Origin: Candidatus Eiseniibacteriota bacterium
GTDB taxonomy: Bacteria; Eisenbacteria; RBG-16-71-46; JABDJR01
Assembly: GCA_963783375.1 (NCBI GenBank)
Contig: CAWANH010000029.1
Location: 640,001 to 704,000, forward strand
Direction of reading: 5' to 3'
Length of the DNA stretch: 64,000 bases
Positions 7,468 to 42,871 of this stretch are shown here, in pieces (the stretch's first letter is position 1; each line of letters begins with the position of its first letter). A program made the translations under genes and the position numbers. The notes beneath the pieces were generated by a model, which searched no databases, had not been told where the DNA came from, and was given only the letters and a program-made list of their open reading frames with translations.

Positions 7468-7469
7468 CC

Positions 7470-7955: not shown

Positions 7956-7981
7956 CTGCCCGATCGGTTCCCGACGGAGGC

Positions 7982-12576: not shown

Positions 12577-12658
12577 GCCCGGCATGAATCTCACGGTCGC
12601 CCCCCCTTCCGGACGGAGGCCGAACCGGGGGGCTCGCGTACAAATCGATCCACGCGAC

Positions 12659-13633: not shown

Positions 13634-13640
13634 GTCCCCG

Positions 13641-16600: not shown

Positions 16601-17132
16601 CGTCGGCGAACCACCAGTCGCAGTTCCGGGTCCCTCCCACCCCGCGCACCGAGGGGCGGTTCCGGCCGGGATCGAGGTAGGGGAAGTTGAGCCCGGAGTT
16701 GGCCAGCACGGTGGTCTTGCCCGACGCCGGCGGGCCGATGATCATGTACCAGGGGAGCACGTAGAGGGCGCCCGCGCCGCCCTTCGACTTCCCCATGCGG
16801 GAACTCTTGAGCGCCTGCACCGCCTCCAGGAGCTGGGTCCGGAGGTGGTCGATCTCCTCCTCCCGGCCGGGACGGCTGGAGACCAGCTGGGACTGGGCCT
16901 GATCCTCCAGCGATTTCTCCAGCGCCGCCCCCGCCCGCTGGGCCCTGAGCCGGAGCAGGAACATGACGATGAGCCAGAGGAAGAGAACGGCCAGGATGCC
17001 CAGGGCCAACCACGGTCCACGGATGCCGAACTGCGGGCCGACCCAGACCAGGATGAGGATGAGGCCCGCGGCGCCGCCGGTCATCAGCGATCCCGGACGG
17101 AGGAGGCGGGACAAGAGGCTCATGAACATCAT
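13641..17132 (-). CDS. tssM: T6SS membrane complex TssM/IcmF
   Basis: LYVLPWYMIIGPPASGKTT, GGTRNCDWWF, LDTAGRY, PINGLIV, RGFYFTSGTQEG; N-terminal TM helices; 1163 aa. Confidence 0.96.
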   Translation of the reverse strand: MMFMSLLSRLLRPGSLMTGGAAGLILILVWVGPQFGIRGPWLALGILAVLFLWLIVMFLLRLRAQRAGAALEKSLEDQAQSQLVSSRPGREEEIDHLRTQLLEAVQALKSSRMGKSKGGAGALYVLPWYMIIGPPASGKTTVLANSGLNFPYLDPGRNRPSVRGVGGTRNCDWWFADEAVILDTAGRYVLPVEADDTQEWLAFLDLLRKHRGKKPINGLIVGVSIQDLVMGGEEDVESHAQKIRARVDELIQRLGISFPIYVVFTKCDLIRGFVEFFGDLSKTERAAVWGATIARERFAREPAEGIFRAEMEKLTGALRQARVPRTAEAANPESRPEILFFPLQFHALTERLATFVEILFRENPYHERPIFRGFYFTSGTQEGRPIDQVINAMLRGFGIAASEEGMTVAPSQTKSYFIENAFSKVVFPDRYVAGPSAEGERRRRSRRAKVFAAGCVGLALLTVALVVLSAGNRRLLHQVQSLSDRAAASAQRGSLDFTVDDLHTLESLRSKLEAMDDRGRPVTKAVLLGTYQGEKAAEAARRLYLASLHDAVMAPVQPYLARNLVQHADSLGVTFPRYYGWYRTWRILQDPAARLDPADAEPVAAQLSGYWAPVTGVPDGKDREDFDRLFVKQIAYAARYPEILADLFPPAPYRDEHVENVSRRAIQRYWSADGVYSGVGEAGAAVPSITVGGILGADVGVYGDVAVPGAYTEDGWKGPVTDYMDWLETVRGDWVLRECWNGTPPGIREAVLTRYGRDYGAHWQDFMAAIRVEPGADPEATRSFLERAAGESGPVLKVLRAVDQNTRFDQESAPGLIAVETEFGALHEFFRAPGGGGPFKFLHGGDSGGQAPYLDYIDKVKALANGYAAVASGGDPAQSEPVLGLVSWVDTRIPNTETSPASQEMARVLKLPARLVTGSVGAEAGRDVQSNWSRVLRDYQSTLAGRFPLASGGADCSLADFEQFFGPNGTFWTFYQESLSGLVSEDGHELPNPRVHLSPAFLDCLRTAYRIRRGMFPDGGKKAGFGFSIQPDQVQRESSIVMRGVRLDLGGQSLIYQMGQRTWTPMTWPGPNPENGADLRLDAGDTAVIPSLSFSGAWGFFHLLDQGRIQAGGSNQVTLAWTLNAQPSPVTVTMNVSGLSSIHPLSNGFFRFSLPSHIVAARR

Positions 17133-17148
17133 GTCGATGACTCCCCGG

Positions 17149-17916
17149 TCACCGGCCCATCCCGGCCATGAACTGGCGGATGGAATCGGCGGTGTTGCCG
17201 GCCGCCCCGTGGGCGAATAGCGCGAAAACCAGGATCAACAGGAGGGCGCCGGGCACGAAGAACGCCGCGGTCACCCACATCGGCACCCCTTCCCCCACCG
17301 CCTCGGAGAAGTCGTCGGGGCGCTTGCCGTGGGGAGAGAGCCCCTCCACGCTCCACCCCTGGCCCCGGGCCAGTTCCCGGGAGAGCTCGCCGATCAGGAC
17401 TTCCAGCTTCTCGCGGCCGAAGAGCTTGAATCGCCCCTCGAACCCCAGGGCGAGACAGTCGTAGTAGATCTCGAGCACCTCGCGGTTCTCGTCCAGGTTC
17501 TGCCGGAGCCGCTCCAGACGGTTGAAGAATTCCTCTCCCGCCACGTTGATCTTGAGGAGCTCGAGCTGGAGCGGGGTCACTCTCCAGGTGTCCTTCCCCG
17601 GCCAGGCGGAGTTCAGGACCGCCTCATCGAAGAGGGCGACCAGGGCGAACCGGGCCTCCTCCACCGCGACCGAGGAGACCCCGGCCTTGCGGGCATCCTC
17701 CTCCATCTTCTCCACCATTTTCACCACGCGCTTGCGGAACTCGGCGGGGTCGCCCAGATCCACCGCCGAACGGAGGGAAAGCACCAGGGAGAAGAGATCG
17801 GCGGCGGCTCCGCCGAGGGAGGTCACCTTGTCCGAGGCGGGCGGCGGGGCCGCCCGCGAAGGGACCGGCGTCGCGCCGGGATTTCGGTTCGCGGATTTCG
17901 AGAACGGGAGTTTCAT
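17149..17916 (-). CDS. tssL: T6SS TssL/DotU (no OmpA domain)
   Basis: ARFALVALFDEAVL...W...LQLELL..NVAGEEFF...LEIYYDCLALGFEGRF plus a C-terminal TM; start at ATG 17916. Confidence 0.92.
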   Translation of the reverse strand: MKLPFSKSANRNPGATPVPSRAAPPPASDKVTSLGGAAADLFSLVLSLRSAVDLGDPAEFRKRVVKMVEKMEEDARKAGVSSVAVEEARFALVALFDEAVLNSAWPGKDTWRVTPLQLELLKINVAGEEFFNRLERLRQNLDENREVLEIYYDCLALGFEGRFKLFGREKLEVLIGELSRELARGQGWSVEGLSPHGKRPDDFSEAVGEGVPMWVTAAFFVPGALLLILVFALFAHGAAGNTADSIRQFMAGMGR

Positions 17917-17921
17917 GGTTT

Positions 17922-19274
17922 TCAATCGTTGAGCGCGATGAGCTCGAGCTGGATGTTGGGGAATTCGGGTGGAGCGTAGAGGGCGATGGCATGGGACCCG
18001 GCCACCAGGTCCCACACGTCCCCCGATTTCTCCACCTGGAAGTAGACGTATCCGGCCTGCACCGGGAGCGAGGCGGGGGCGGTCTGCACGTGACGCACCG
18101 ACACTCCGGTCAGCGCGTTCGAGATCAGGAACTCGATCCGGTCCGGGGTGGCGATCTTGATCTTCTGGGGAAGGCTGGTCTGGATCTCGCCGGTGGGCAT
18201 GGAGGCATAGACCCCCAGGTAGAACCCGACCTTGGGGGCGAGCAGGCGGTCGTCCTCCAACCGCCCGGCGAAGACCTCGTTGGCTCCCTTCTCCAGCGGG
18301 ATGCGGGTGTAGTGCCGCGGCAGCACCGTCTCCATGAGCTTGGGAATGCGGGTCCCGAGATCGGCGAAGGCGGCCTCGGGACGCTCGTGCTCGTAGACCG
18401 CGATGTCCCGGACGTCCTTGTCGCTCATGGTGGTCAACGTGCCGGCCAGCCGGGCCAGGGAGGTGTAGACGCGCTCGGGATGGGCCACCGCTCCGCGCAG
18501 ATAATGGGAGATCTCGGGAATGGCCGCGTTCACCACCCCCAGGAGCCAGAACCCGGCCACGTCGTCCCGGCCGAACTCGGCCACCCCCTTCCCGCTGTGG
18601 CGGCGCCGCTCGGAGAGCTCGCGGGACTTGGCCACCAGGAGTTCCAGGAGCCTCCGCAGGGTGCGAAGAACCGCGTCCGAGGCCCCGATGCTCAGGCAGG
18701 GGGGAACGTGGTCCTCGCGGTAGGCGAACCCCCCCTCGGGCTTCCGCACCACCTCTGCGATGGGAAGGTGGTCGTAGTTCCCCAGGGTCTCCCCCGGGAG
18801 GAGAAGCCGGAAGTTGCGGTGCGAGACGACGATCTCCCGCTCGTTCTCTCCGCTGGTCTCGTCCATCGCCCGCAGGGTGGCCTCCCGGTACCGGGTCTCG
18901 GCCCGGTCGCCGTCGCCGGCGCCGGCCACCTCGCGCTCCCCCGGCCGGTGGATGCGAAGTCCCAGGTAGAGCGGCAGCCGGCTCTCGCTCAACGGGAAGC
19001 GATCCTCGATGTTCAGGCCGGGAGGGGCTTCATCCCGATCGGGGATGGAGAAGGCGCCCCCCAGGGGAAGCACCCCCGCGGCCGAATGGACGACCACCTG
19101 GCCGTTGTGGATGGCGTCCCGGTCGAGCTCGAGAGAGGTCAACCCCCACCCGAAGGGACGGGCGGAGCGGAAAAGCTCCACCGCGGTCTCCTCGTGGTAC
19201 CGATCGAGATGCTGGAGGTGTTGGGGAGTGAGGAGCAGGCCCTCGTTCCACACCAGACGGGTGCGTTTGCTCAT
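17922..19274 (-). CDS. tssK: T6SS baseplate TssK
   Basis: LVWNEGLLLTPQHLQHLDRY...WG...HPERVYTSL...ALTGV...LPVQAGYVYF. Confidence 0.95.
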   Translation of the reverse strand: MSKRTRLVWNEGLLLTPQHLQHLDRYHEETAVELFRSARPFGWGLTSLELDRDAIHNGQVVVHSAAGVLPLGGAFSIPDRDEAPPGLNIEDRFPLSESRLPLYLGLRIHRPGEREVAGAGDGDRAETRYREATLRAMDETSGENEREIVVSHRNFRLLLPGETLGNYDHLPIAEVVRKPEGGFAYREDHVPPCLSIGASDAVLRTLRRLLELLVAKSRELSERRRHSGKGVAEFGRDDVAGFWLLGVVNAAIPEISHYLRGAVAHPERVYTSLARLAGTLTTMSDKDVRDIAVYEHERPEAAFADLGTRIPKLMETVLPRHYTRIPLEKGANEVFAGRLEDDRLLAPKVGFYLGVYASMPTGEIQTSLPQKIKIATPDRIEFLISNALTGVSVRHVQTAPASLPVQAGYVYFQVEKSGDVWDLVAGSHAIALYAPPEFPNIQLELIALND

Positions 19275-19296
19275 CGTGCCCGGGTCCTTCCGGCGG

Positions 19297-19812
19297 TCAT
19301 GGCGCCGCCGACTCGATGCAGTGTTCGCTGCAGTTCAGGGTGACCTTGGACGGGATCTCGGCCAGGGGGCGGATCCAGCGCCAGCAGTTCCCCTCCGATT
19401 TGCAGAAGTTCCCCACCACGGCCAGGTACTGGGCCCCGGACGTGGGATGCACCTCGAACGGCACCTTGGCCCCGGGCTCCAGGATCAGCTCCGACTTGTC
19501 CACCAGCTCCTTCCCGAGCTCCGCGTTCTCGTTCCCCCACAGGGTGCCGAGGGCGGACATGGAGATCCGGGCGTCGCCGGAGAGCTGGTAGACCCGCAGG
19601 GTGAGCGCGTTCCCCACCCCCTCGTCGCAGGAATTCAACAGGTCGACGGCGGCGAGGTTGAGGGTCACCGTCTTCGGCCCCGGCGGGGCTTCGGGCTTGT
19701 CCCCGCCCCCTCCGAATATCGCGCACCCCCCGATCAGCGCGGCGGCGCCGATCCCCCCGATCACCCCGAGGACCGGCCGCAGCCGGCCGGCTCCGCGTCG
19801 TTGCATGCTCAT
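19297..19812 (-). CDS. tssJ: T6SS outer-membrane lipoprotein TssJ
   Basis: Lipobox LIGGC, LTLRVYQL, LILEPG, YLAVVGNF..W. Start may be 19806, 19812 or 19854. Confidence 0.85.
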   Translation of the reverse strand: MSMQRRGAGRLRPVLGVIGGIGAAALIGGCAIFGGGGDKPEAPPGPKTVTLNLAAVDLLNSCDEGVGNALTLRVYQLSGDARISMSALGTLWGNENAELGKELVDKSELILEPGAKVPFEVHPTSGAQYLAVVGNFCKSEGNCWRWIRPLAEIPSKVTLNCSEHCIESAAP

Positions 19813-19850
19813 CTCCCTCTGGTCCAGGCGAACCGGGTCCGCCGTCGACC

Positions 19851-20525
19851 TCATGCGGTGTCCGGGTCGCCGGTTTCGGAGCGGCGCCCCAATCGTGCCT
19901 CACGAAATCCGCGGTAGCCGCGGCGAAATCCGTCCCGGTGGAAGCGTTCGTAATCCGCCGGGGCCAGGGACCGGAGCCCCGCGAAGCGGCGGAGGAACTC
20001 CTCCCAGACCACCTGCATCATGACCGGACGCCAGCGGCTGGGCAACTTGAGCGGCCCCACCTCGATCCCGGTCCCCGCGTACTCCCGGCGGATGGCTTCC
20101 GGGTCCAGAACATCGAGGAGCCGGCGCGCACCCTCGTGGGCCGCCTCCTGGTAGCCCTCGAGGAGACCGGCCTGATGCACCTTGATTTCCTGCACCGCCT
20201 CCTGGAGGCGAATTCGAACCTCGTCCCCCTCTTCACCCAGAAGCCGGGCGGCCACCTCCGCCGCCGAGGGATCACCCGCCCCGGCGTCCGGTCCGGGGAT
20301 TCCGTAGGCCTTGCGGAACTGCTCCATCCCCCGCTGCATGTCCAGAAAAAAACCGAGGAGCATGAGGGTCACCTCGGCCGTACGACCGGCGAACCGTTCA
20401 AGCTCCTCTGCGTCCTTGAGCGGGGGCTTCCCCGGGCCCCGGAGCTCCAGCATGTGCCGAAGGGCGGCCAGAACCTCCGGTGACACCGGCGTTCCTCCCG
20501 GACGTGCCGACGCTTCACCGTTCAT
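19851..20525 (-). CDS. TagH/Fha C-terminal-domain-like protein lacking an FHA domain
   Basis: AVQEIKVHQAGLLEG...LLDVLDPEAI...WEEF...FRRGY resembles the TagH C-terminal domain; occupies the fha position upstream of tssJ. Confidence 0.65.
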   Translation of the reverse strand: MNGEASARPGGTPVSPEVLAALRHMLELRGPGKPPLKDAEELERFAGRTAEVTLMLLGFFLDMQRGMEQFRKAYGIPGPDAGAGDPSAAEVAARLLGEEGDEVRIRLQEAVQEIKVHQAGLLEGYQEAAHEGARRLLDVLDPEAIRREYAGTGIEVGPLKLPSRWRPVMMQVVWEEFLRRFAGLRSLAPADYERFHRDGFRRGYRGFREARLGRRSETGDPDTA

Positions 20526-26388: not shown

Positions 26389-26417
26389 ATGGTACTCCCC
26401 CATGGGGGGCGGGTCAA
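26389..26417 (-). promoter_or_regulatory. sigma70-like promoter at the oppF stop
   Basis: TTGACC-17 nt-TACCAT. Confidence 0.55.
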
Positions 26418-27823
26418 CGCGTGGATCGGGTCTGGATGTCCAGTCCCCAGGGAGGCAGATCGGGGACCCGGTGGCAGGCCACCCAGTGCCCGGGCTCGAC
26501 CTCGGTCAGGACCTGGTTCCGCTCGGCGCAGGCGGGACGGGCCTCGGGGCACCGTGGGTGAAACCGGCATCCGGAGGGAGGGCGGGCCGGGCTCGGCACG
26601 TCCCCGCGCAGGATGATGCGCGCCTTGGCCATGGCCGGATCGGGAACCGGCACCGCGGAGAGAAGAGCCCGGGTGTAGGGATGGAGGGGGTTCCGGTAGA
26701 TGGCGTCCCGCTCCGCCAGCTCCACAACCCGTCCCAGGTACATGACCGCCACCCGGTCGCTGATGTGCTCGACCACATTGAGATCGTGGGCGATGAAGAC
26801 GTAGGTCAGGTTGAACCGGCGCTGGAGGTCCTTGAGAAGGTTCACGATCTGGGCCTGGATGGAGACGTCCAGGGCGCTCACCGGCTCGTCGCAGATGAGG
26901 AGCCGAGGCTCCACCGCCAGGGCGCGGGCAATGCCGATCCGCTGGCGCTGCCCTCCCGAGAACTCGTGGGGATAGCGGCGGGCGTGGTAGGCGGAGAGCC
27001 CCACCGTCTCCAGGAGCTCCCCCACCCGGCGCGAGGCATCGCGACCCCGGGCGATGCCGTGAATGGCCAGGGCCTCCTTGATCATCGACTCCACCGTCAT
27101 GCGCGGGTTGAGGCTGGAGTAGGGGTCCTGGAAGATGATCTGGATCTCCTTCCGCATGATGCGGAGCTCGGAGGTGGTGAGCTGGGCCAGGTCCACCCCG
27201 CGATACCGGATGGCTCCGGCGGTGGGCTCGAGCAGGCGGAGCACCAACCTTCCGGTTGTGGTCTTGCCGCATCCGGATTCCCCCACCAGGCCCAGGGTCT
27301 CGCCCTCCCGAACCTGGAGGTTCACCCCGTCCACCGCGCGCACCGCGCCCACGGTGCGGTTCAGGAACCCCTTATGGATCGGGAAGTGCTTGGTCAGCCC
27401 TTCCAGGACCAGGAGCTCCCCATGAACGTCGACCCGGCGACCCATCCGCTCGGCCCGCCCCAGGATCCGTTTCACGGTGAGGCGGGGACGGCGTGCCACG
27501 TAGGCCAGCTGGAACCCCAGCCAGAGCGCGCCCCCGGTGAGGATCGCCACCAGCGGAGCAACCCTCGCGAGGACGAGAATTTCCGCGGAAAGCGCGGCGA
27601 CCAGGCCCGCCGCACCCCAGACCCTCGGAGCCCCCAGCTCCCGCACCCGCGCGTCCCGCGTCACCGAGGACGCGTAGTAGCCGTAGAGCCCGAAGCCCAG
27701 AAGGAGGCCTCGGGCCAGGATCGGGGACATTCCGGCATCCCGGGCTTCCCGCGCCACCCGCGTCCCCAGCGGCAGGGCCAGAAGGATGAACACCACGTGG
27801 GCCACCAGGAGATTTCCGATCAT
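26414..27823 (-). CDS. oppF: Peptide ABC ATPase OppF/DppF with an N-terminal membrane extension
   Basis: [59 protein letters not shown] 27823 overlaps the oppD stop. Confidence 0.9.
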
Positions 27824-28848
27824 CAGAAGCTCACCCCCTCGCCGCGGAGCGCCGGAACCTCGCGCCAGCGATGGCAGCGCACCTGGTGGCCGTCGCCGCA
27901 CGCCTCGAGCGCGGGCTCCTCCCGCCGGCACCCATCGTCCAGGAAGGGGCAGCGCGGATGGAAGGTGCAGCCCGGCGGGAAGGCGGTGGGCGGGGGCACC
28001 GTCCCCGGGATCACGCTCAGCCGCTCCTTCCGCTCGGTCATACGGGGGATCGATTCGAGGAGGCCGATGGTGTAGGGATGGCGCGGGGAGGCGAAGAGGG
28101 TGCGGATGTCGGTGTATTCCACCACTTTTCCCGCGTACATCACCGCCACCCGGTCCGCGGTCTCCGCGATCACCCCCAGATCGTGGGTGATGAGGATCAT
28201 GGCCATGCCCAGCTCGGCCTGAAGGCTCTTCAAGAGCTCGAGGATCTGGGCCTGGATGGTGACGTCGAGGGCGGTGGTGGGCTCGTCGGCGATCAGCACC
28301 GCGGGATTGCAGGAGAGGGCCATGGCGATCATCACCCGCTGGCGCATCCCCCCCGAGAGCTGGTGAGGATACTCGTCCACCCGCTGGTCCGGGGAGGGAA
28401 TCCCCACCTTGGCCAGCATCTCCACCGCGCGCCGCCGGGCCTCCTTCTTTCCCACCCTCTGGTGGAGGCGCACCGCCTCCATGATCTGGTCCCCGACGGT
28501 GTACACCGGGTTGAGGGCGGTCATGGGCTCCTGGAACACCATCGAGATCTCGTTTCCCCGGATCCGCCTCATGGCGTCGTCGTCGAGGGACAGCAGATCG
28601 CGACCGCGGAACAGCACCTGTCCCCCGGCGATCCGCCCGGGGGGCGACGGAATCAGCCGGAGGATGCTGAACGCGGTCACGCTCTTTCCGCAGCCCGACT
28701 CCCCCACCACCCCCAGGGTCTCCCCCGCCCTCACCTCGAAGGAGACCCCGTTCACCGCCTGCACCTCGCCATCGTCGGTGTCGAACACCGTGCGGAGGTC
28801 CCGGACTTCCAGAATGGGGGCGGGCCCGGAGGTCGGATTCGGGGTCAC
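27823..28848 (-). CDS. oppD: Peptide ABC ATPase OppD/DppD
   Basis: [46 protein letters not shown]; GTG 28848 after AAGGAG. Confidence 0.93.
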
Positions 28849-33053: not shown

Positions 33054-33769
33054 TCAATGGATGAGCCGGAAGCCGAGCCAGTCCGAGAACAGGAAGCGCA
33101 GGCGGTCCAGGGCCAGGGAGATGCGGGCCATGACCGTGAAACCGTAGGAGGCCCCGAAGGAGATCATCAGGTAGTAGATCCCGAGGCGAGCGGCGCCCCC
33201 CCCACCCCCCGGTGTTCGGCGGAGAAGAAGAAGTAGTACAGGGTGGTGACGAGACCCAGGATCAGCACGGTGTTGGAGAGCACGCCGAGGACCGCCATCA
33301 GGCCGGCGGTAAATCCGTGAGCGGCGGTGAGGGTACCCCAGGAGCCGGGCTGAACCAGGGGCATGAGGTTCGAGCGGATCTGCTCGATGAGGTCACCCTG
33401 GGCGAAACCGATGACCGCCAGGCCGGAGTAGGCTCCCACCATCACCCCGATCGCCCAGCGGGAGAGCCATGAGACCCGCGGCACGAAGCGGGCGAACATG
33501 AACACCCCCAGAACCAGGGCCCCGACCCGGACCAGCCCGGTGGGATCCGGGGTGCCGCCGAACAACCCCGACACCCCCCTCGAGACCGGCTGGAACAGGT
33601 TCGGAACCAGCACGTTGTCGTACTGGATGCTCAGGTAGTAGCCCGAAGCCACCCCCACGAAGAGGTACTCCGCGGTCTTGTAGATCGGGTTGTCCTTGTA
33701 CAGGTACGAGAGGATGGCCAGGGTACAGAGCGCGGCCACCCAGACCCACGGATCGCTGCTCACGTGCAC
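33054..33769 (-). CDS. Multi-TM hypothetical protein of the DUF6754 cassette, with an apparent 1-nt frameshift
   Basis: SYLYKDNPIYKTAEYLFVGVASGY... The frame stops at 33167 as assembled. One extra G in the G8 run (33196-33203) continues into ARLGIYYLMISFGASYGFTVMARISLALDRLRFLFSDWLG to TGA at 33054. Confidence 0.8.
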
Positions 33770-33781
33770 GGGATCGAGCTC

Positions 33782-34657
33782 CTACTCCGCTTCCGGGCGG
33801 CGGCGGCGGTTCAGGTAATAGACCACGTTACCCAGAATGATCAGGACGATGATGGTGACGTGGCCGAGACTCTGGGCGGACATGCCGGTGGTGGCCCAGG
33901 CCGGCCGGCCGATGAGCTGCTCGTACTCCGCGGCCCCGGCCAGCCCCCCCAGGAGTCCAGATAGCTGCCCCGACTGGACGTACGGGTAGTACTCGGGAGC
34001 GCTCACCGCGGTGACTCCGGCCACGATCGGAATGTCGTAGCGGCTTCGCACCTGCTGCACCCATTCCTTGGTCCCCGGGTAGCCGGCGGAGATGTTCACG
34101 ATCAGCTTCACGTCCCGAAAGTTGTCGACGGTCCAGCTGCCGCCGGGCTTCTTGGCGCTCAGAAGGGGCAGACGATCCACCGGGGTGCCGTAGTAGTCGT
34201 TCGGATAGACCCCTCGGAAGGATTTCCCGAGCTGGACCATCACGTTCTCCTTGCCCTCCTTGAACCCCAGGTTCACGAAGTCGGTGCCGTAGATCCGGTG
34301 GTAGGTCCCCTCCCCCACGGTCTTCAGGCCCCGCTCCAGGAGCGGCGCCCCCGCCGGCCACAGGGTGGCCCCCACGATCTTCACGTTCTTCCGGAACAGC
34401 TGGTCCAGGGAAGCCACCAGCATCGGGTCGAGCTCGGGCTTGGACCCCGGATCGTAGTCCGCGGCGAAATAGACCACGTCGCCGGGCTTCAGGTTCTCGA
34501 TGGCCTGGTAGTAGCCCCGAACCGGCTCGCTCACCCGGATGGGGAGGTTCATCTTGACGAAGAGGGGGACGGAGATGGAGATCAGCATGAGCAGGAACAC
34601 CCAGCGGCGATCCAGCTTCTCGACCTTCTCCAGGAAGGTGCGCTCGGCGGCGGCCAC
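33782..34657 (-). CDS. Hypothetical membrane protein (TM, alpha/beta domain, TM)
   Basis: DRRWVFLL...DYDPGSKPEL...YGTDFVNLGFKEG...PYVQSGQLSGLLGGLAGAAEYE...AQSLGHVTIIVLIILGN; 291 aa. Confidence 0.85.
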   Translation of the reverse strand: MAAAERTFLEKVEKLDRRWVFLLMLISISVPLFVKMNLPIRVSEPVRGYYQAIENLKPGDVVYFAADYDPGSKPELDPMLVASLDQLFRKNVKIVGATLWPAGAPLLERGLKTVGEGTYHRIYGTDFVNLGFKEGKENVMVQLGKSFRGVYPNDYYGTPVDRLPLLSAKKPGGSWTVDNFRDVKLIVNISAGYPGTKEWVQQVRSRYDIPIVAGVTAVSAPEYYPYVQSGQLSGLLGGLAGAAEYEQLIGRPAWATTGMSAQSLGHVTIIVLIILGNVVYYLNRRRRPEAE

Positions 34658-34660
34658 CGG

Positions 34661-35341
34661 CTAGTCGCTCCCCAGGAAGTTGCGCTCGATGCCCAGAATC
34701 ACCTTGAGACCGGTGGCGATCGCCCCCAGCGCCGCTCCGATCAGGATCGCCCGCTTGGCCGCGAGCTGAGGGACATTCATGATCCAGTCGGTGATCTGGG
34801 GGAGGCCGGTCCAGATCTTCTCCCCCAGGGGCACCCGCCCGATCATCACGATCACCGCGGCCAGGGCGAGGAGGGTGGCGTCCACCGTCCGCACGCGGAA
34901 GGCCCGGAAAGCGGCCGAGGCGATGTAGAAGGCCAGGAGCGCGAACATGGTGGCCTGGAGCGGGACGTACATCCGGTTGTAGACCCGGTCGAAGAGGGTG
35001 CCGTCGGTGACCCCGGTGAGGCGGAGGCTCCCGATCATCCACTCCCCCTTGGCCCCCACCGCCCACTTCAGGATGGGAAGCCCGGTGCCCAGGAGCATCA
35101 TCGCGGTCAGTCCGAACAGGAGCACCACCGCGTAGGGCCACTCCCGGTCCCGCCGGCTCACCTTGAGCAGGTTGATGCGGGCCACGTTGGCCACCCCCAG
35201 CACCGCGGCGAACGCGGTCATGATGATGGCCCAGTTCTGGATCTCCGTTCCCACCGGCTCGGTCAGCGGCACGAAGAAGTCGGCCACCATGAACCAACCC
35301 ACGATCATGGTGAGGAAGAGCGGCACTTCACGACGCAACAT
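34661..35341 (-). CDS. Hypothetical integral membrane protein
   Basis: About 6-7 TM; PLQATMFALLAFYIASAAFRAFRVR...KRAILIGAALG...LKVILGIER. Confidence 0.85.
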   Translation of the reverse strand: MLRREVPLFLTMIVGWFMVADFFVPLTEPVGTEIQNWAIIMTAFAAVLGVANVARINLLKVSRRDREWPYAVVLLFGLTAMMLLGTGLPILKWAVGAKGEWMIGSLRLTGVTDGTLFDRVYNRMYVPLQATMFALLAFYIASAAFRAFRVRTVDATLLALAAVIVMIGRVPLGEKIWTGLPQITDWIMNVPQLAAKRAILIGAALGAIATGLKVILGIERNFLGSD

Positions 35342-35344
35342 GGA

Positions 35345-36418
35345 TTAGTCCAGCCTGAGGAAGTTGGTGAGGGCGTGGATCCCGAAGGTTTCGAGGAGGG
35401 TCCCCAGAACCAGGTAAGCCAGGATCACCACCTTCATGTAGTCGGTTCCCTTGAGCGTTCCCACCAGCTTGGGCTCCCGGGCCAGGTAGGCCGTCGCCGC
35501 GTAGAACTCCTCACCGATCAGGGTGTAGTCACACGCCACCACGAAGAACGGGAGCTGGTGGATGTTGGCGGTGCCGGCGATCTGGATGGCCCCGGTCTGG
35601 AAGCCGGTCTCGGCCAGGATCAGGCTCTCCGCGAAGAAGGAGCCCAGGAAGAGGTTGGCCGCCGGCTTTTCCCGGAGCATGATCCCGTCCACCCCGGCGG
35701 TGAAGGCGAACTGCTCTTCGGAGAGATAGCGGATGTTGTTGGGATTGTAGGCGTCGGGGACCCCGGCGTCGATGTACGCCTGCTTCACGGTTTCTTCGGC
35801 CAGGGGGACCACGAAGGCGCGGGCCAGAGGCACGATCAGCGGGGTCTCGTACTTGGCCACGGTCCGGGCCACGTTCCCCAGGATGATCATCGAGTAGATG
35901 GTCTGGATGTTGTTGACGTCGTCGATCCCGGGAACGTAGAGGACCGGCTTCCCCATCTCGGTGGCGCGCCCCACCGCCTCCTCCACCGCGTCCAGGCCGG
36001 CGATCTTCCGGATGAAGAACTGCTTCCCCCCCTCCGCCCGGAAAATGGCCCACAGGAAGAGCGCGCCGAACAGGGCGAGCCCGACGAAGACGGGGAAGAA
36101 CGTGAAGTCGAAGAGCTTCTGGCCGAAGGTCTTCGGTCCGGGCTCCGAGGCCTCGGCGCCTTCACCCCCCGGAACGGAGAGCGGAGGGGGCGCGGTTCCG
36201 AGGACGAGGGTGTCGGTCGCGCCTCCCGCGGCGGGCCCGGCGCCGGCCGAAGCCCCCGCGCTGTCCCCCGGAGCGGGTTCCGCCCGGACCCCGGCGGCCA
36301 TGACCAGAAGCGCCAGCCCCAGGACCGTGGTCCGGAGGACATTGGACAACCTGGATGTGGCGCGGCCTCCCGCCGGCGCCGGGCGCAGGCGGAGGTTGGG
36401 TACCGGAGCGGTCCACAT
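35345..36418 (-). CDS. DUF6754-like membrane protein
   Basis: FIRKIAGLDAVEEAVGRATEMGKP...QLPFFVVACDYTLIGEEFYAATAYL recalled as DUF6754, not searched; signal-like N-terminus with a low-complexity linker. Confidence 0.75.
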   Translation of the reverse strand: MWTAPVPNLRLRPAPAGGRATSRLSNVLRTTVLGLALLVMAAGVRAEPAPGDSAGASAGAGPAAGGATDTLVLGTAPPPLSVPGGEGAEASEPGPKTFGQKLFDFTFFPVFVGLALFGALFLWAIFRAEGGKQFFIRKIAGLDAVEEAVGRATEMGKPVLYVPGIDDVNNIQTIYSMIILGNVARTVAKYETPLIVPLARAFVVPLAEETVKQAYIDAGVPDAYNPNNIRYLSEEQFAFTAGVDGIMLREKPAANLFLGSFFAESLILAETGFQTGAIQIAGTANIHQLPFFVVACDYTLIGEEFYAATAYLAREPKLVGTLKGTDYMKVVILAYLVLGTLLETFGIHALTNFLRLD

Positions 36419-36460
36419 GGGGATAGACGGTTCCTTGTAAGTGTCGGAAAAGATTTCAGA

Positions 36461-36489
36461 ACGCTACCAGAGGCCCCCACCGCGGTCAA
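36461..36489 (-). promoter_or_regulatory. sigma70-like promoter of the four-gene membrane cassette
   Basis: TTGACC-17 nt-TAGCGT with a TGn extension. Confidence 0.5.
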
Positions 36490-36535
36490 TGAAGAAACCG
36501 GACAACGAAGGTCGGATTAAACAATCGGCAGGTTG

Positions 36536-37810
36536 TCAGACCGCCGGCTCGCGGCGGGTGCGCCAGCGGGAGACCGTCCCCCGCCGGGGCGGGACGGCCA
36601 GGCCCATGGGGGTGGCGATCACCGTCACCACCGCCATCAGCAGCCAGTAGACGATGGGGTAGAACACCGCCACGTAGAAGTAGTGGGAGAGGGTGCGGTC
36701 GTAACGCCGCTCCAGGAGCACCCCGGCCAGGAGCTGAAGCAGGCAGGTGGTGCCGATCAGCATTCCCCACCAGGTGGGAATCGGGGAGACCCCCAGAACG
36801 GGAAGCCCGGCCGCGCGGAAGAGGATCCAGAGCGCGATGAGCCCCACCATGACGTAGGCCCAGGTGATGGACAGGACGGCCTCGATCAGGACCGGCCAGT
36901 GCCGCCGGTGGCGGCGATCGAACAGGAGATCGCGGTTCCGATGAAGCACCTGGGCCAGGCCCTTGGCCCAGCGGATGCGCTGGCGGAAGAGGCCCCCCAG
37001 CCCGGACGGCACCTGCATCCAGACCAGGGCCCGCGGCTCGTAGCGCACGTCGTAGTGGGCGCGCTGGAGCTTCCAGGTCATGTCGATATCCTCGGTGACC
37101 ATCTCGGGGCTCATGAGCCCCACGTCGATCAGGGCGGACCGGCGAAACGCCCCCACCACCCCGCTCATGGTGAGGATCCGTCCCCAGACCCGCTGGGACC
37201 GGCGAAGGAGGCTCACGATCGATGCGAACTCGATGAGCTGGAGCTTGGCCAGGAAGCTGTGCCGGTTGGCCACCCGGGGGTTTCCGGTCACCGCCGCCAC
37301 CCTCGGGGAGCGGAAGTGGGGCACGATCCAGCGCAGCATCATGGGGTCGGGATAGGCGTCGGCGTCCATGATCATCACGATCTCGCCGTTCACCAGGGGA
37401 AGGGCGTCGTTCAGGGCCATGGCCTTCCCCTCGTTGACGCGCTTTCGCACCAGGCGCACCTGCCCCCGCTCCACGTAGGGGGCCAACGCGGCCACCGTCC
37501 CGTCCGGCGAGGCGTCGTCCACCACCACGATTTCCTTGAACGGGTAGTCCAGGGCCAGGATCCCCTCCACGGTGCGGGCGATCACCCGCTCCTCGCCGTA
37601 GGCGGGCACCAGCACCGTCACCAGGGGATAGATCTCGATGTCGTAGAACCTGGGAAGGAGATGGCGTTCCCACCGCCAGTAGTAGAGGAGGGAGGTGGAA
37701 ACCCACACCAGGCTGGAGAGCACCGGATAGAACGCGAAGAAGGTCAGGGCCGCCAGGTACGGCCAGGATCCCTGTACGGCGGCGGCGGCCTCGGCCGGGC
37801 TCACGTTCAA
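36536..37810 (-). CDS. pgaC: GT2 processive glycosyltransferase, PNAG synthase PgaC/IcaA-like
   Basis: VVDDASPD, GKAMALN, MDAD, AVTGNPRV, MVTEDID, QRIRWAKG (D,D,D,QxxRW) and C-terminal TMs. Confidence 0.82.
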   Translation of the reverse strand: MNVSPAEAAAAVQGSWPYLAALTFFAFYPVLSSLVWVSTSLLYYWRWERHLLPRFYDIEIYPLVTVLVPAYGEERVIARTVEGILALDYPFKEIVVVDDASPDGTVAALAPYVERGQVRLVRKRVNEGKAMALNDALPLVNGEIVMIMDADAYPDPMMLRWIVPHFRSPRVAAVTGNPRVANRHSFLAKLQLIEFASIVSLLRRSQRVWGRILTMSGVVGAFRRSALIDVGLMSPEMVTEDIDMTWKLQRAHYDVRYEPRALVWMQVPSGLGGLFRQRIRWAKGLAQVLHRNRDLLFDRRHRRHWPVLIEAVLSITWAYVMVGLIALWILFRAAGLPVLGVSPIPTWWGMLIGTTCLLQLLAGVLLERRYDRTLSHYFYVAVFYPIVYWLLMAVVTVIATPMGLAVPPRRGTVSRWRTRREPAV

Positions 37811-38232
37811 AACGCCCGGTAGATCTTCCGCCCCGAGGCGGGATCGAGGTCGATCTCCACTTCCGGGGCGTTCTGAAGGGCTTCCCAGTCGGGGCCGGCC
37901 ACCGGACGGCCGAGGGCGTCCCGGCTCCAGTCCGCCTCCGCCTCCGGCACCGATCTCCTCCGAAACGCGTACCGCCGGGAGAGAACCAGGTTGTGCCGGA
38001 TCCAGGCCGCAGTGAGGCTCACCGACACCAGAAGCAGGACGACGACCACCAGAACCCCGGCCGCGCTCTCGGCCGGCGGGGTGCGGCAGAACACCTCGTA
38101 CCAGAAGACCCCGAACGCCACCCAGGCGGCCAGAGCCCCCAGAAGGTGCATGGCCGCGCCCAACCTCCCCGTGTGGGTCAGGGGGGGGCGATAGCGCGGG
38201 TCATGTCCGCTGGTGGGGCTCACCGAGGCCAC
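37807..38232 (-). CDS. Two-TM protein, PgaD-like accessory subunit
   Basis: 141 aa with two TMs followed by WIRHNL...RYAFRRR; 4-nt overlap with pgaC. Confidence 0.55.
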   Translation of the reverse strand: MASVSPTSGHDPRYRPPLTHTGRLGAAMHLLGALAAWVAFGVFWYEVFCRTPPAESAAGVLVVVVLLLVSVSLTAAWIRHNLVLSRRYAFRRRSVPEAEADWSRDALGRPVAGPDWEALQNAPEVEIDLDPASGRKIYRAF

Positions 38233-38280
38233 GTCTCCCGGGTTGGATCCTCCGAGGGCGAAGCTCGCCCTCTTCGGGGT

Positions 38281-38307
38281 TTATCGGCCGGCGGCGACCC
38301 GGGTTGA
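38281..38307 (-). promoter_or_regulatory. sigma28 (FliA/WhiG)-like promoter
   Basis: TCAA-15 nt-GCCGATAA, with a perfect -10 element. Confidence 0.55.
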
Positions 38308-38315
38308 AGGAAGGG

Positions 38316-39050
38316 TCAGATGTCGAAGGAGGAGAGGCGCTCGTCGTGGCTCGGCTTTCCCCAGTACTCCTCTTCGGGGGTGCCGATGGACGGCACGGCC
38401 AGGAGCACCGCGGCGAGGTACAGGTAGAGGGCGGCCACCAGGGCCAGGGCCACCCAGGGGGGGACGGGGCCGATCCGCATGCTCCGGTAGAACGAGTAGT
38501 CCCCCTCGATCACCCCGGGATGCATGAGAAGCTTCGACACCCAGCTCCCCAGGAGGAGCAGGAAGAGCGCCCCGTAGTTGCGTTTCAATCTCGCGCGCAC
38601 CGCCTGCTGATAGGTGATCTTGAATCGGGGCCGCAGGAGATCTTCGGCCACCAGTTTCCCCCAGTTGGCGACCGGGCTCCGAAGATCGCGGCGGAAGATC
38701 GGCCCGAAGAAGTTCTCTTCCAGCATGTGCACCCGCGCGCGCCAGACGTCGAAGAACCGGAAGCGCCGGGCTTCGATCCCCAGGAACGTGAACACCAGGA
38801 GCATGCCGGCCAGGATCCCCACGTGGGAGTGGGAGGGCTCGCCGAGGCTGAAGGTGACGAGGCCCATCACCGAGAGGATGGCCCAGTTGGTGGTGTTGTC
38901 CAGCCGCAGGCGCCACTGGGTGGCCCGGTCCAGCTCCCCCCGGTAGAAGTGCACCAGGGCCGAGATGTACTCCGACCGGCTGAGCGGGGTCTCCTCGTAG
39001 CTGGGAATGGGGATCCGGGTCTTCTCGCCTGGGTACTCCCGCTCGGTCAT
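38316..39050 (-). CDS. DUF2270-like integral membrane protein
   Basis: ALVHFYRGELDRATQWRLRLDNTTNWA...IEARRFRFFDVWRARVHMLE...RLKRNY. Confidence 0.85.
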   Translation of the reverse strand: MTEREYPGEKTRIPIPSYEETPLSRSEYISALVHFYRGELDRATQWRLRLDNTTNWAILSVMGLVTFSLGEPSHSHVGILAGMLLVFTFLGIEARRFRFFDVWRARVHMLEENFFGPIFRRDLRSPVANWGKLVAEDLLRPRFKITYQQAVRARLKRNYGALFLLLLGSWVSKLLMHPGVIEGDYSFYRSMRIGPVPPWVALALVAALYLYLAAVLLAVPSIGTPEEEYWGKPSHDERLSSFDI

Positions 39051-39053
39051 CGC

Positions 39054-40175
39054 TCAGCCCTCGATCATTTCCACGTTCGCGCGGGGCACGATGACGTCGT
39101 CCCCGTCGGCAAGCTTCACCCGGAGCACCCGCACCTTGGCCTCGGTTTCCAGCGCGACCAGCTCGGAGGGGAGCGCGGTCACCTGCCCCAAACGTCCGAA
39201 GTAGGGCTCGCGGATCACGCGAATGACCATGCCCACGTCGAGACCGCCCTGGAAGGTGTCCGGCGCCTCGTCCCTCCCCCGGCTCTCCTCCAGAGGGACG
39301 ATGATCTCCGGGCGAAGCACGCCGGCCCGGATCTGGGTGGCCCCGTTCACCGAGGCCTTCTTGCCGTTGAGACGGGTGAGGAGTTCGAAGGTCTTGTCGG
39401 CCATGGTGAGGGCACCGAATCCCTCGGTGACGATCACGGTGAGACCCAGATCCTCGCTCCCGGTGATGGCCACCCCGAGGTCGTACCCCAGGAGCTTTCT
39501 CAGGTCCTCGTCGGCCATCCCCCCGGCCACGATCGCCGCCGCGCCCTGCTTGCGGGCCTCCTGGATGAGAAGGTAACTGGCCTGGGTTCCCACCACCACC
39601 ACCTTCCCCTTGGAGTCCTTCAGGGCCTCGAGGCCGGCCTGCCGGTCGGGAGCGTCCACCGCGAGGTGCAGGATGCCCACCCCCTCTCCCCCGATCCCGA
39701 AGATGCCCTGGATCAGGGCGCCGCGGGTCTCGACCACCACCCCCTCCTCGGGCATGACCTCCTTCACCGTGCCGTCCACATAGGCCGCCATCTCCACCGG
39801 GAGAGCGGGTTCGCGAAGGGTGACCTGGCCGGTGACCTCCGAGACGTTTTCCAGGGTGCCGGAGGTGTTGGCCCGGGCGGTGGACTTGAGGAGGCCGAAC
39901 AGGGACTTGGCCCGGGCGATCGGCTCCCCCTCCTTCACCGACTCCCCCGACTGCTTGAGCATGCAGCCGGCGATGTCCGCGGGGGGAACGCCGAGGATGT
40001 TGGCCACGTTGACCGTCTTCACGTTTCCCGGGAGAGCGGTTCGGGCCACCACGTCCTCGGCCCGGACCGAGTCCCCCTGCTTCACCGCCACCTCCCCCTT
40101 CAGGGGAAGGCGGCGGACCTTGTCGATCACGGTGTGGCCGGTGACCCGGAGCCCCGGCGTGTATGCGTGTGCCAC
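39054..40175 (-). CDS. Hypothetical protein with barrel-sandwich-hybrid-like repeats and a C-terminal KOW/SH3-like domain
   Basis: GTG 40175 after an AGGAAAGGAAG RBS; VKQGDSVRAEDVVA, KQSGESVKEGEPIA, LGVAITGSE, VGMVIRVIREPYFGRLGQV. Confidence 0.8.
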   Translation of the reverse strand: MAHAYTPGLRVTGHTVIDKVRRLPLKGEVAVKQGDSVRAEDVVARTALPGNVKTVNVANILGVPPADIAGCMLKQSGESVKEGEPIARAKSLFGLLKSTARANTSGTLENVSEVTGQVTLREPALPVEMAAYVDGTVKEVMPEEGVVVETRGALIQGIFGIGGEGVGILHLAVDAPDRQAGLEALKDSKGKVVVVGTQASYLLIQEARKQGAAAIVAGGMADEDLRKLLGYDLGVAITGSEDLGLTVIVTEGFGALTMADKTFELLTRLNGKKASVNGATQIRAGVLRPEIIVPLEESRGRDEAPDTFQGGLDVGMVIRVIREPYFGRLGQVTALPSELVALETEAKVRVLRVKLADGDDVIVPRANVEMIEG

Positions 40176-40197
40176 GTGCGCTTCCTTTCCTCGGTTC

Positions 40198-42033
40198 CTA
40201 TTCGGCGGCCGTCGCGGACGCGGGGTCCGCATACATGTCCACGGCCCGGTTCCAGCGACGGAGCGCCTCCACCCGCCGGGCGCGGTCCGCGGGGAGCCGG
40301 AAGGGACGGCGCCCCCGGGCGTCGAGCAGAACCCCCACCACACCCCCCTTCAGGGTCCGGGTCGCCGCGCGTCCCTTCCCCTCGCCGAAGTCGAGGTGCT
40401 TCGAAGGTTCAAGATGGGCCTCGGCCTCTTCCCCCACCCCCAGGGGAAGGAGCAGGAGGTCGCCGTAGTTGAGGGTGTGGGCCTCCTCCCGCCCGCCGGA
40501 GAACTTGATGCGGGCGGTGAAGGCCGGCTGGCCCGTCTTCCCCTCTCCCCACGGGGCCACGGTGGTGCCCAGGCGGATCATGCAGTCCTTCTCGAACACC
40601 TCGGTGGCCACCGCCGGATACCGGGTGGAGAGCACCCCGAGGTGCGGCATCATGAAGATCGAGTCCACCGCCATCTCGGTGATCCCCTCGGGGAGGAAGG
40701 CGTCGGTCATCATCAGCATGGCCTGCTGGCGCCGGGGGGCGTGGGACAGCACCCCTCCCGAGCCCACCACCAGGGCCAGGGAGTCCAGGCTCACCAGGGT
40801 TTCCCCCGAGGTGGTCTGCTCGAAGGTGTCGGAGATGGTGCGCTCCTGCTGGACCCCCTTGAGCCCCACCGCCAGCGCCTTGTGCTGGGCGAAGGCCAGC
40901 CGCAGGGCCTCCCGGGCCAGAGCCTGCTCCACCATGAGCTCCTGCCGGGTCTGGGGGATGGTGGTGGGGCGGATCATCTTGTTCTTGACCCGGTTCCGGA
41001 GGTCCGCCTCCTCCAGCTCGAAGGGGACCCAGCGCATGACGTTCTCCACCCCGGCCTCGGCCAGGACGTTGGAGACCGAATAGGACATGCCGAGGTTGGC
41101 GGACACGGTGCGGTTGAAGACCTTGGAGAATACCGAGAACACGTCGGTGGTCGCCCCCCCGATGTCCACCCCCAGGACGTCGATCCCCTCCTGCTCCCCC
41201 ACCGACTCGATGATCCGGCCCATGGCCGCCGGGGTGGGCATGATCGGGACCGGGGTCCAGGACATGAGCTTCTTGTAGCCGGGGGCCTGGGCCATCACGT
41301 GCTCCATGAAGAGATCGTGGATGGCGTGGCGGGCGGGCATGAGGTTCTCGCGCTCCATGGTGGGGCGGAGGTTGTCCACCACCGAGAGCGCGGTCTTCTC
41401 GCCGAGAATCTCCTCGATGTTCCCCCGGGCGTCGGTGTTCCCGGCGTAGATGATGGGAAGCTTGTAGGAGAGCCCCAACCGGGCCTTGGGGTCGGCGGCG
41501 GAGATGAGCTCGCCCAGCTCCACCACGTGCTTGGTCGTGCCTCCGTCCACGCCCCCGGAGAGAAGGATCATGTCCGGGCGAAGCTGGCGGATGCGCTGGA
41601 TCTTCTGGTAGGGGAGCCGTCCGTCGTTGGAGGCGATCACGTCCATCACGATCGCGCCCGCCCCCAGCGCCGCCCGCTCCGCCGACTCCCCGGTCATGGT
41701 CTTCACCACCCCGGTCACCATCATCTGGAGCCCGCCGCCGGCCGAGGAGGTGGAGAGGTAGATGTCCACCCCCTTGTCCCCCACCTGGGGGGTGATGATC
41801 GTCTCGCCGTCGAGGATCTGGCGGCCGGCCAGCTCCTCCACCTCGCGGACGGAGTTCAGAACCCCCTTGGTCACGTCCTCGAAGGGCGCCTCCACCGTGG
41901 TGGGAGCCTCTCCCCGGACGATGAGACGGTACTCGTCCCCGCGCTTCTCGATCAGGATGGCCTTGGTGGTGGTGCTTCCGCAGTCCGTGGCCAGGACGGA
42001 CCGCACCTCCTTCGGCAAGGTCGGTTCGCTCAA
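40198..42033 (-). CDS. GlmL (glutamate mutase L)-like ASKHA/actin-fold ATPase
   Basis: Phosphate motifs ATDCGSTTTK and VDIGGATTD, STSSAGGGL, PDMILLSGGVDGG, MPTPAA and adenosine motif GSGGVLS. Confidence 0.85.
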   Translation of the reverse strand: MSEPTLPKEVRSVLATDCGSTTTKAILIEKRGDEYRLIVRGEAPTTVEAPFEDVTKGVLNSVREVEELAGRQILDGETIITPQVGDKGVDIYLSTSSAGGGLQMMVTGVVKTMTGESAERAALGAGAIVMDVIASNDGRLPYQKIQRIRQLRPDMILLSGGVDGGTTKHVVELGELISAADPKARLGLSYKLPIIYAGNTDARGNIEEILGEKTALSVVDNLRPTMERENLMPARHAIHDLFMEHVMAQAPGYKKLMSWTPVPIMPTPAAMGRIIESVGEQEGIDVLGVDIGGATTDVFSVFSKVFNRTVSANLGMSYSVSNVLAEAGVENVMRWVPFELEEADLRNRVKNKMIRPTTIPQTRQELMVEQALAREALRLAFAQHKALAVGLKGVQQERTISDTFEQTTSGETLVSLDSLALVVGSGGVLSHAPRRQQAMLMMTDAFLPEGITEMAVDSIFMMPHLGVLSTRYPAVATEVFEKDCMIRLGTTVAPWGEGKTGQPAFTARIKFSGGREEAHTLNYGDLLLLPLGVGEEAEAHLEPSKHLDFGEGKGRAATRTLKGGVVGVLLDARGRRPFRLPADRARRVEALRRWNRAVDMYADPASATAAE

Positions 42034-42437
42034 CGTTTTCTCCTCTCGGTCTTGTCCGTCTTCTTCCCCCCACCCTTCCGCTTCGCGGTCTTGGCCGCGC
42101 GCTCCTTCTCCCGATGGGCCTCGTCCGCCGCCTCGATGCGGCGAAGAAACTCCTCCATGTTGTCCCGCTCCTCCATGATGGAGGCGAACCGGCTGTAGCT
42201 TCCACCGTGGATCACCGCCCGCACCACCGGCTCGAAAAAGAACATCGCCTGGCTCCCCACGAAGTTCAGCGGCTTCACCGACTCCAGGAAGAGCACCGCC
42301 GGCACGGCCAGCCGCCGTTCGGCGAGCCAGGCCGCCATCCGGTCCAGAAGGGCGGCGTCCTCCCCGCTCAGCCCCGGCTCGTCCTCCCGGGGCTCCGGTG
42401 GGCCATCCCCCGGCGGCCGGCGGCCGAAGATCCCCAT
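42030..42437 (-). CDS. Small hypothetical protein
   Basis: ATG 42437; RRLAVPAVLFLESVKPLNFVGSQAMFFFEP; 4-nt overlap with the glmL-like gene. Confidence 0.78.
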   Translation of the reverse strand: MGIFGRRPPGDGPPEPREDEPGLSGEDAALLDRMAAWLAERRLAVPAVLFLESVKPLNFVGSQAMFFFEPVVRAVIHGGSYSRFASIMEERDNMEEFLRRIEAADEAHREKERAAKTAKRKGGGKKTDKTERRKR

Positions 42438-42439
42438 CG

Positions 42440-42871
42440 TCACTCCCCGTCCCCGCCGGGACCGAACCGGCTCACCCAGTCCAGAATCTCGTCCCGGTGC
42501 TCGCCGTAGCGAAGCATGACGCTCCGATAGGGCTCCAAGGGGTGCCGGCCCCGGAACGGGCTGAGGCTCACCCCCCTCTCCCCCACGTAGGCCTGGCGGA
42601 AATCCCGCCACGGCCGGGCCGTCCGCTGGAAGGCGGAACGCACCTCCACCCGGTCCGGGGTGAGCCGGTAGGAGGTGGAGACGAAGAACGGCCCTACCCC
42701 GCCCACCAGGATCAGGGCGGCGAAGAGGCCGATCACCAAGCCTCCCAGCACGAAGCTGGCGTAGATCGCGCCGGCCACCACGGCCAGCGCGGATATCCCC
42801 TTGGCCCGTTCCGCGTGGAACGGACGCACCCGCCACGTGAGCTCCACCTTATCGGTGGCCCTCTCCGTCAC
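42440..42871 (-). CDS. Two-TM hypothetical protein with a possible PH-like soluble domain
   Basis: LTWRVRP, two TMs, then PFFVSTSYRLT...RPWRDFR...GVSLSPF; overlaps the gcvPB end. Confidence 0.75.
   Translation of the reverse strand: MTERATDKVELTWRVRPFHAERAKGISALAVVAGAIYASFVLGGLVIGLFAALILVGGVGPFFVSTSYRLTPDRVEVRSAFQRTARPWRDFRQAYVGERGVSLSPFRGRHPLEPYRSVMLRYGEHRDEILDWVSRFGPGGDGE

Follow-up and report, generated by a model that had tools for sequence, protein, structure and literature searches.

What do eight neighbouring genes do together when one of them resembles the helper of a B12-dependent mutase and four others encode a membrane cassette? The question is raised by a stretch of 64,000 nucleotides from a Candidatus Eiseniibacteriota genome (contig CAWANH010000029.1, positions 640,001 to 704,000; the window, below), in which all eight open reading frames (ORFs) lie on the minus strand and have a third-position GC content (GC3) of coding type. 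We label them A1-A4 (block A, 42871-39054) and B1-B4 (block B, 36418-33054). A preliminary description, made from the DNA letters, had placed eight genes in two tight blocks, and we reproduced its coordinates, with gaps of 2, -4 and 22 nucleotides in block A and 3, 3 and 12 in block B. The eight genes are one conserved system that is gained and lost jointly, and its predicted ATPase, A3, is independent of B12 mutases. As to what the system does, an ATP-driven importer outside the ATP-binding cassette (ABC) class, in which a shared A3-A4 energiser serves several membrane cassettes, is to us about as probable as all other explanations taken together.

One system, gained and lost jointly

At least 575 relatives of A3 were confirmed in GTDB, and we analysed the best 80 loci. 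The relatives at these loci are 62-76% identical to A3 across phyla, with labels that include Zixibacteria, Poribacteria, Ignavibacteria, Riflebacteria, Cloacimonadota, Latescibacterota and others. Within 10 kb of A3, A4 was found at 62 of the 80 loci, B1 and B2 at 44 each, B3 at 42, B4 at 40, A2 at 31 and A1 at 23, and many of the contigs counted here are shorter than this range. Whole-genome searches covered 50 of the 80 loci, longer contigs being preferred, and DUF6754, the Pfam family of B1, was present in all 50 genomes, which had been picked on the ATPase. Genes that are not linked to A3 turn up elsewhere in the same genomes: A1 in five of five such cases, A2 also in five of five (three of these matches contain stops), and A4 in all four ATPase carriers in which the genes are scattered over the chromosome.

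Two samples of 151 genomes, one from the window's phylum and one from a second phylum (around genome G027), were independent of the system genes except for the centre genome; kin within them are not independent of each other. In the window's phylum the long ATPase and DUF6754 occur together in 137 genomes, neither occurs in 12 and a single marker in 2, so that the two markers agree in 149/151. The 137 include one genome (G116) with a weak fragment of DUF6754 and with B3 present. B3 is absent from 11 of the 12 marker-negative genomes. In the second phylum, where the system is rare, DUF6754 was found in 18/151 genomes and the long ATPase in 17/151, all 17 lying within the 18. In one genome with the ATPase and without DUF6754 (G163), the contig ends inside A4.

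Losses of the system are spread over six families. The clearest is in a member of the window's own family (G087; 3 contigs, 93% complete), from which both blocks are gone and DUF6754 is found nowhere, with gcv, pgaD/pgaC and opp still in order. The preliminary description had suggested that the eight genes form one ATP-driven membrane machine. Joint presence and absence in the two phylum samples gives blocks A and B a common phyletic pattern; together with the co-occurrence, this upholds the part of the suggestion that speaks of a single system, and the ATP drive is what we infer.

The eight genes of the system and the insert between the two blocks (window positions)
Feature	Position	Strand	Description
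A1	42440-42871	-	143 amino acids (aa); small membrane protein, 2 predicted helices and basic C-terminal domain
A2	42030-42437	-	135 aa; no known family; no full transmembrane helix; conserved amphipathic core
A3	40198-42033	-	611 aa; long GlmL/MutL-family (ASKHA-type) predicted ATPase, ~120-aa C-terminal extension
A4	39054-40175	-	373 aa; soluble partner: barrel-sandwich hybrid, swivelling beta/beta/alpha and C-terminal KOW/SH3 folds (model)
B1	35345-36418	-	DUF6754: exported variable N-terminus, helix, predicted cytoplasmic Rossmann-like domain, helix
B2	34661-35341	-	integral membrane protein, six helices, N-in predicted
B3	33782-34657	-	helix, soluble domain of ~225 aa predicted to face outward, helix
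B4	33054-33769	-	integral membrane protein, ~six helices, N-out predicted; frame split near 33195
Insert between blocks	36536-39050	-	DUF2270, PgaD-like, PgaC-like glycosyltransferase; outside the system

Independence from B12 mutases

A3 belongs to the Pfam family MutL (PF13941; E 3e-128, 428.8 bits against a gathering cut-off of 27), and a search of PDB sequences found no relative of it. MutL/GlmL is described, in a PMC4682846 figure legend, as a chaperone that reactivates glutamate mutase. One rival explanation would make A3 a conventional accessory protein or reactivase of a B12 mutase, with a merely incidental link to the membrane genes. Besides the Pfam match, this explanation can point to the 7 of the 50 carrier genomes that have a mutase subunit (GlmE in 5, the PF09043 aminomutase subunit in 6), and to two aminomutase regions we fetched (L124, L125), where no GlmL-like match was found and where such a role is possible. 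However, the other 43 carriers have neither subunit, and the window's own genome (97% complete) has neither GlmE nor PF09043, both families being detected by the same means in other genomes; what had been noted for the window alone, that it holds no B12 mutase subunit, extends to the whole genome.

Three GlmE genomes that we looked at have another GlmL next to glmE, a short one of 484-505 aa with 27-28% identity to A3, and a quick tree of 34 rows, with long branches, splits these three proteins from the long clade by a fully supported branch. In the second phylum, GlmE is found in 0/17 carriers of the long ATPase, and in the single genome with GlmE every GlmL copy is short and DUF6754 is absent. 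A3 also scores far below the three NCBIfam cut-offs for the GlmL and Or-4 equivalogs (NF040745, 232 against 475; NF040744, 225 against 600; TIGR01319, 171 against 204). GlmL/MutL and Or-4 thus share with A3 the Pfam family, the core motifs and 27-32% identity over ~460 aa; unlike them, A3 is ~120 aa longer, does not lie beside glmS/glmE and tracks DUF6754. A mutase-helper role for A3 is largely refuted, and we regard it as very improbable. One further ORF may be recorded here, of 645 aa (L123:7018-8955, genome G036): it matches GlmE, has a B12-binding-like N-terminus and sits in a polysaccharide gene cluster with no GlmL adjoining.

The preliminary description had credited the GlmL-like protein with intact actin-fold ATP motifs, and the long clade agrees: three core motifs are invariant in 73/73 rows and the fourth in 70/73. 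Among them, residues 17-24 and 290-297 are invariant in all 73 and residues 424-431 identical in 70; we take these ASKHA motifs to be those named phosphate-1, phosphate-2 and adenosine. The stretch that may correspond to the region before phosphate-2 has the residues PTP in all three kinds of GlmL protein, the long, the fused and the short. In Hsp70 and MreB, a catalytic acidic residue lies ahead of phosphate-2.

A membrane cassette and its putative motor

A4 is the gene found most often near A3. It gave only sub-threshold barrel-sandwich matches in Pfam and only sub-threshold domain hints in a PDB sequence search, and its description comes from a predicted structure (mean confidence, pLDDT, 87.3). 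In this model, a barrel-sandwich hybrid resembles that of NqrA (Z 8.0, root-mean-square deviation (rmsd) 2.2, 64 residues aligned), with RnfC also matched, a swivelling domain resembles the phosphohistidine domain of rifampin phosphotransferase (Z 9.3, rmsd 3.4, 111 aligned), enzyme I of the phosphotransferase system (PTS; Z 9.1, rmsd 2.9, 102 aligned) and RraA (Z 8.7), and the C-terminus has a KOW/SH3 fold resembling NusG (Z ~8).

These resemblances raise the possibility of a membrane enzyme or group translocator, in which A3 would be a kinase- or hydantoinase-like activator that phosphorylates the incoming substrate and A4 a swivelling carrier. The match of the swivel to phosphohistidine domains is consistent with such a role, as are invariant polar motifs in A4 (46 rows) and the position of Hydantoinase_A as second-best family in A3's Pfam list, at E 2e-4 and under its cut-off. 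Nevertheless, no column of A4 has a conserved histidine in at least 40 of the 46 rows, and on this ground we reject a PTS-like phosphohistidine carrier. The hairpin lysine is not invariant either, being K in 33/46 rows at position 90 and in 26/46 at position 97; with the Pfam matches below cut-off, this leads us to reject a lipoyl or biotinyl carrier as well. We consider a group translocator decidedly improbable.

A3 and A4 also occur as one protein. In three of the five regions with a second paralogue that we fetched (L111, L112, L114), matches to both lie in one ORF; in another (L113), the A4 motifs were recognised by eye, and the fifth was not resolved. These fused paralogues (L111-L114) are divergent, measure 855-1011 aa from the first start codon, lack the KOW domain and occur in genomes with many cassettes.

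The two remaining genes of block A are less telling. Nothing was found in Pfam at E<=0.1 for A1, A2, B2, B3 or B4, the scan of A2 having used the longer ORF 42030-42836, and for A1 there are only weak PH-like hints (bPH_6 in 2/18 rows, best E 0.023). A1 and A2 could serve as accessory anchors or assembly factors.

Block B had been described as consisting of membrane proteins throughout. By hydropathy this is correct for all four, with the refinement that B1 and B3 each have just two helices, along with a large soluble domain. Combined with the positive-inside rule, hydropathy places the B1 domain inside and the B3 domain outside, with the N-terminus of B2 inside and that of B4 probably outside; for B4, four helices were called by script and two more inferred from long loops. 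B1 is a full member of DUF6754 (PF20539, E 3e-111), and its modelled core (pLDDT 95.6) consists of a helix, a Rossmann-like domain and a second helix. B1 relatives form 2135 clusters at 50% identity; B3 has at least 3816 homologous clusters, and those with names among the 120 listed are all hypothetical proteins. ESM Atlas returned unnamed clusters only, and B2, B3 and B4 have no relative in a PDB sequence search.

The cassette varies most on its outer side. The exported N-terminus of B1, for which a PDB sequence search points to FN3/titin, can carry up to ~1000 extra residues; a Pfam scan of B1 representatives (74 of 150, picked mostly by length) gave PQQ-type beta-propellers in 14/74 and fn3 in 2/74. 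The four subunits have diverged in step with one another across 51 cassettes (r 0.78-0.91). Between paralogues within a genome (18 pairs), the cytoplasmic domain of B1 is 66% identical and the outward domain of B3 42%. There are 1-9 DUF6754 matches per genome as against mostly one close ATPase, so that there can be several cassettes to one ATPase. Besides its single A3, the window's own genome has another intact B1-B4 cassette, on contig C1 (G000:C1:193473-196550, L119). This second cassette is 35-67% identical to that of the window in matched stretches, and genes encoding an M48 peptidase and an OPT oligopeptide transporter lie in divergent orientation to it.

A variable outer face above a conserved inner one would also suit a transmembrane sensor or gated channel, whose ectodomains bind a signal, whose B1 domain acts as an RCK-like gate and whose A3-A4 pair relays it as a nucleotide switch. 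RCK/Ktr/Trk domains are indeed among the tied fold matches of B1 (Z 9.0-9.5), and the KOW/SH3 end of A4 is NusG-like. These RCK matches are, however, no better than those to other Rossmann folds, the 80 loci show no recurrent regulator or output domain next to the ATPase, and two six-helix subunits would exceed what a receptor needs. A sensor or channel is therefore, in our estimation, improbable.

The large exported beta-propeller or FN3 ectodomains are also what one might expect of an ATP-dependent machine for envelope biogenesis or export, which would insert, flip or export proteins, lipids or polymers with A3-A4 as a reactivase-like remodelling chaperone. Retention in 138/151 genomes of the phylum and an ATPase so little diverged across phyla look like housekeeping, tol-pal genes follow A4 in 13-19/80 loci, and an ATPase with a swivelling domain is, according to PMC7674605, the architecture of the glycerol dehydratase reactivase. 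Yet the clean joint loss in close relatives shows that the bacteria can do without the system, only loci labelled Zixibacteria or Ignavibacteria have the tol-pal link, and up to nine diverged cassettes suit diversification of substrates equally well. We judge an envelope machine to be unlikely.

The importer, to which we return, would work as follows. The cytoplasmic, actin-fold A3-A4 pair would use ATP to drive the four-subunit membrane unit B1-B4. In this unit B1/B2 would be oriented opposite to B3/B4, and the four subunits would make up a pore or moving core that bears one soluble domain on either face. Substrate capture might fall to the variable outward parts, namely the B3 domain and the FN3 or beta-propeller ectodomains of B1, and the conserved cytoplasmic domain of B1 might be the dock for one A3-A4 module shared by all cassettes, much as one energy-coupling factor (ECF) energiser serves many S-components. 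Movement could come from ATP-driven binding and release by the ATPase-plus-swivel unit, in a manner resembling the dehydratase reactivases. As for the cargo, peptides or amino-acid derivatives are the leading guess, and a weak one; the opp and OPT genes recurring near cassettes offer a faint hint of it.

A three-chain model of A3, the swivel piece of A4 and the B1 domain speaks to the proposed docking. Its score was 0.53, whereas none of three controls, among them one with A3 replaced, rose above 0.00; at least 97% of contacts are common to its runs, and the partner has a pLDDT of at least 73. In a calibration, the mark was reached by 116/157 solved and 2/215 mismatched pairs, but at scores of 0.60 or less there are only 18 of the 157 solved pairs and both of the mismatched passes. 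The interface prediction lends weak support to an A3-A4-B1 contact.

Several observations weigh against the importer. The score of 0.53 lies in a range that is more often wrong than right unless the contact is likely beforehand, and the calibration there means that the model moves the odds only modestly. The fold matches of B1 are those of a generic Rossmann domain (best Z 10.3, rmsd 3.4, 147 aligned). Profile-profile comparison, of B1 with B3 and of B2 with B4, detected no homology (probability <2%), which leaves predicted topology as the basis of the putative pseudo-symmetry of the cassette. Two genomes show that the cassette can persist without the ATPase: in G133 (98% complete, 20 contigs) A2 lies directly ahead of B1-B4 with neither A3 nor A4 (L133, on G133:C10), and the near-complete G247 has DUF6754, with A3 and A4 not found. 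Finally, the neighbours of the system vary by lineage (tol-pal, ribosomal-protein genes, gcv, opp) and name no cargo.

Surroundings, known systems and significance

The flanking gcv, pepA and opp genes had been taken as support for a role in amino-acid catabolism, and this support proved to be weak. Genes of glycine cleavage adjoin A3 in only 9-10/80 loci. Among the 12 system-less genomes 11 retain GcvP, and in three of four gcv regions fetched from such genomes gcv and oppA are still neighbours. Dependence on glycine cleavage is accordingly rejected as a requirement, since gcv persists where the system has been lost. In the window, oppA has a near-perfect sigma-70 consensus promoter of its own (11/12) at 32966-32937 on the minus strand, right after B4. 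Both in the window and in Riflebacteria-type loci, opp genes lie next to the cassette, and an OPT gene is found close to the second cassette and likewise close to a fusion paralogue. The idea that the system belongs to anaerobes fared no better: heme-copper oxidase subunit I was matched in 3/5 carrier genomes tested, the window's own among them, which shows that its distribution extends beyond anaerobes.

The window's gene order is common to loci labelled Ca. Eisenbacteria (L077, L080). The genes inserted between the blocks (DUF2270, PgaD-like and PgaC-like) are not syntenic in the 80 distant loci apart from one weak GT2 match, and pgaD/pgaC are retained in G087, where both blocks are absent. 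The PgaC-like glycosyltransferase (36536-38232) scores 397.5 bits against a TIGR03937 cut-off of 422.3, and its neighbour is presumably PgaD-like. The frame split of B4 sits in a homopolymer run. One extra base is present there in a near-identical contig (run X1) and in a more distant one (run X4), and both parts of B4 are in a single frame in the three closest relatives fetched; the split is therefore a one-base assembly error. At 25 loci labelled Zixibacteria or Ignavibacteria (L044:2657-3454 and 24 others), A3 and A4 are separated by a protein of 265 aa whose start resembles a signal peptide and which has no Pfam match, and a tol-pal operon follows; this protein is possibly a ninth component.

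Elsewhere in the window, at 1900-19900, reading the translations by eye reveals what we take to be a type VI secretion gene cluster, with ClpV-, TssF-, Hcp-, TssB/C-, TssM- and TssK-like ORFs. The OppF-like ATPase (26414-27830) is apparently preceded in frame by ~130 hydrophobic residues, and in G087 a single 860-aa ORF spans the opp ATPase region; the hydrophobic stretch may be a fusion or a further frameshift error.

How does the system relate to those already described? According to PMC7674605, the glycerol dehydratase reactivase combines an Hsp70-like ATPase domain with a swivelling domain and drives the release of a partner subunit by ATP. By analogy with the large subunit of the glycerol/diol dehydratase reactivase (PDB 1NBW), A3 and A4 appear to have the same two fold types, split over two genes and fused in the paralogues. 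The reactivase's client is a soluble B12 enzyme, whereas the only constant companions of A3-A4 are membrane proteins. A match to the DDR family was found neither in A3 nor among the Pfam families listed for A4, no reactivase gene for comparison was found in the 50 genomes, and no dehydratase reactivase structure is among the best 50 fold matches listed for A4, which still leaves kinship possible.

In ECF-type ABC transporters of group II, one shared energiser serves many S-components. The present system is similar in having one ATPase module and many membrane modules scattered in the genome. It differs in that none of the eight genes matches P-loop ABC_tran, EcfT or an S-component, in a scan that did find ABC_tran in the adjacent Opp ATPase. 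Nqr and Rnf contain an inverted NqrD/E pair with conserved intramembrane cysteine ligands. The barrel-sandwich of A4 resembles NqrA/RnfC, and B2/B4 are likewise two six-helix subunits of predicted opposite orientation, but no column of B2 or B4 has a cysteine conserved at 70% or more over the 51 cassettes, and no redox-cofactor family is matched in the eight genes. We therefore set the system outside ABC/ECF, PTS, Nqr/Rnf and the GlmL equivalogs. DUF6754 is a family to which no function is assigned, and here it becomes one subunit of an ATPase-linked four-gene cassette. We found no publication on the system, DUF6754, PF20539 or PF13941 in a search that lay outside most subscription journals and supplements.

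Primary transport is driven by P-loop, P-type or rotary ATPases, and we know of no solute transporter that is energised by an ASKHA-fold ATPase. One may speculate, at slightly worse than an even chance, that the system represents a new class of primary active transporter, with an actin/Hsp70-fold ATPase and a reactivase-like swivel in place of a P-loop motor. The motor would dock on the DUF6754 subunit of up to nine interchangeable antiparallel permeases, in many bacterial phyla and probably in archaea. Nature has already provided experiments on it, in the form of a clean double deletion, ATPase-less cassettes and fused ATPase-partner paralogues. A consequence for genome annotation is that 'glutamate mutase L' is in many cases a wrong label, and such labels should not be taken as a sign of B12-dependent glutamate fermentation. 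More broadly, a multi-subunit membrane system that is this conserved and has no recorded function marks a large gap in what is known of physiology in uncultured lineages.

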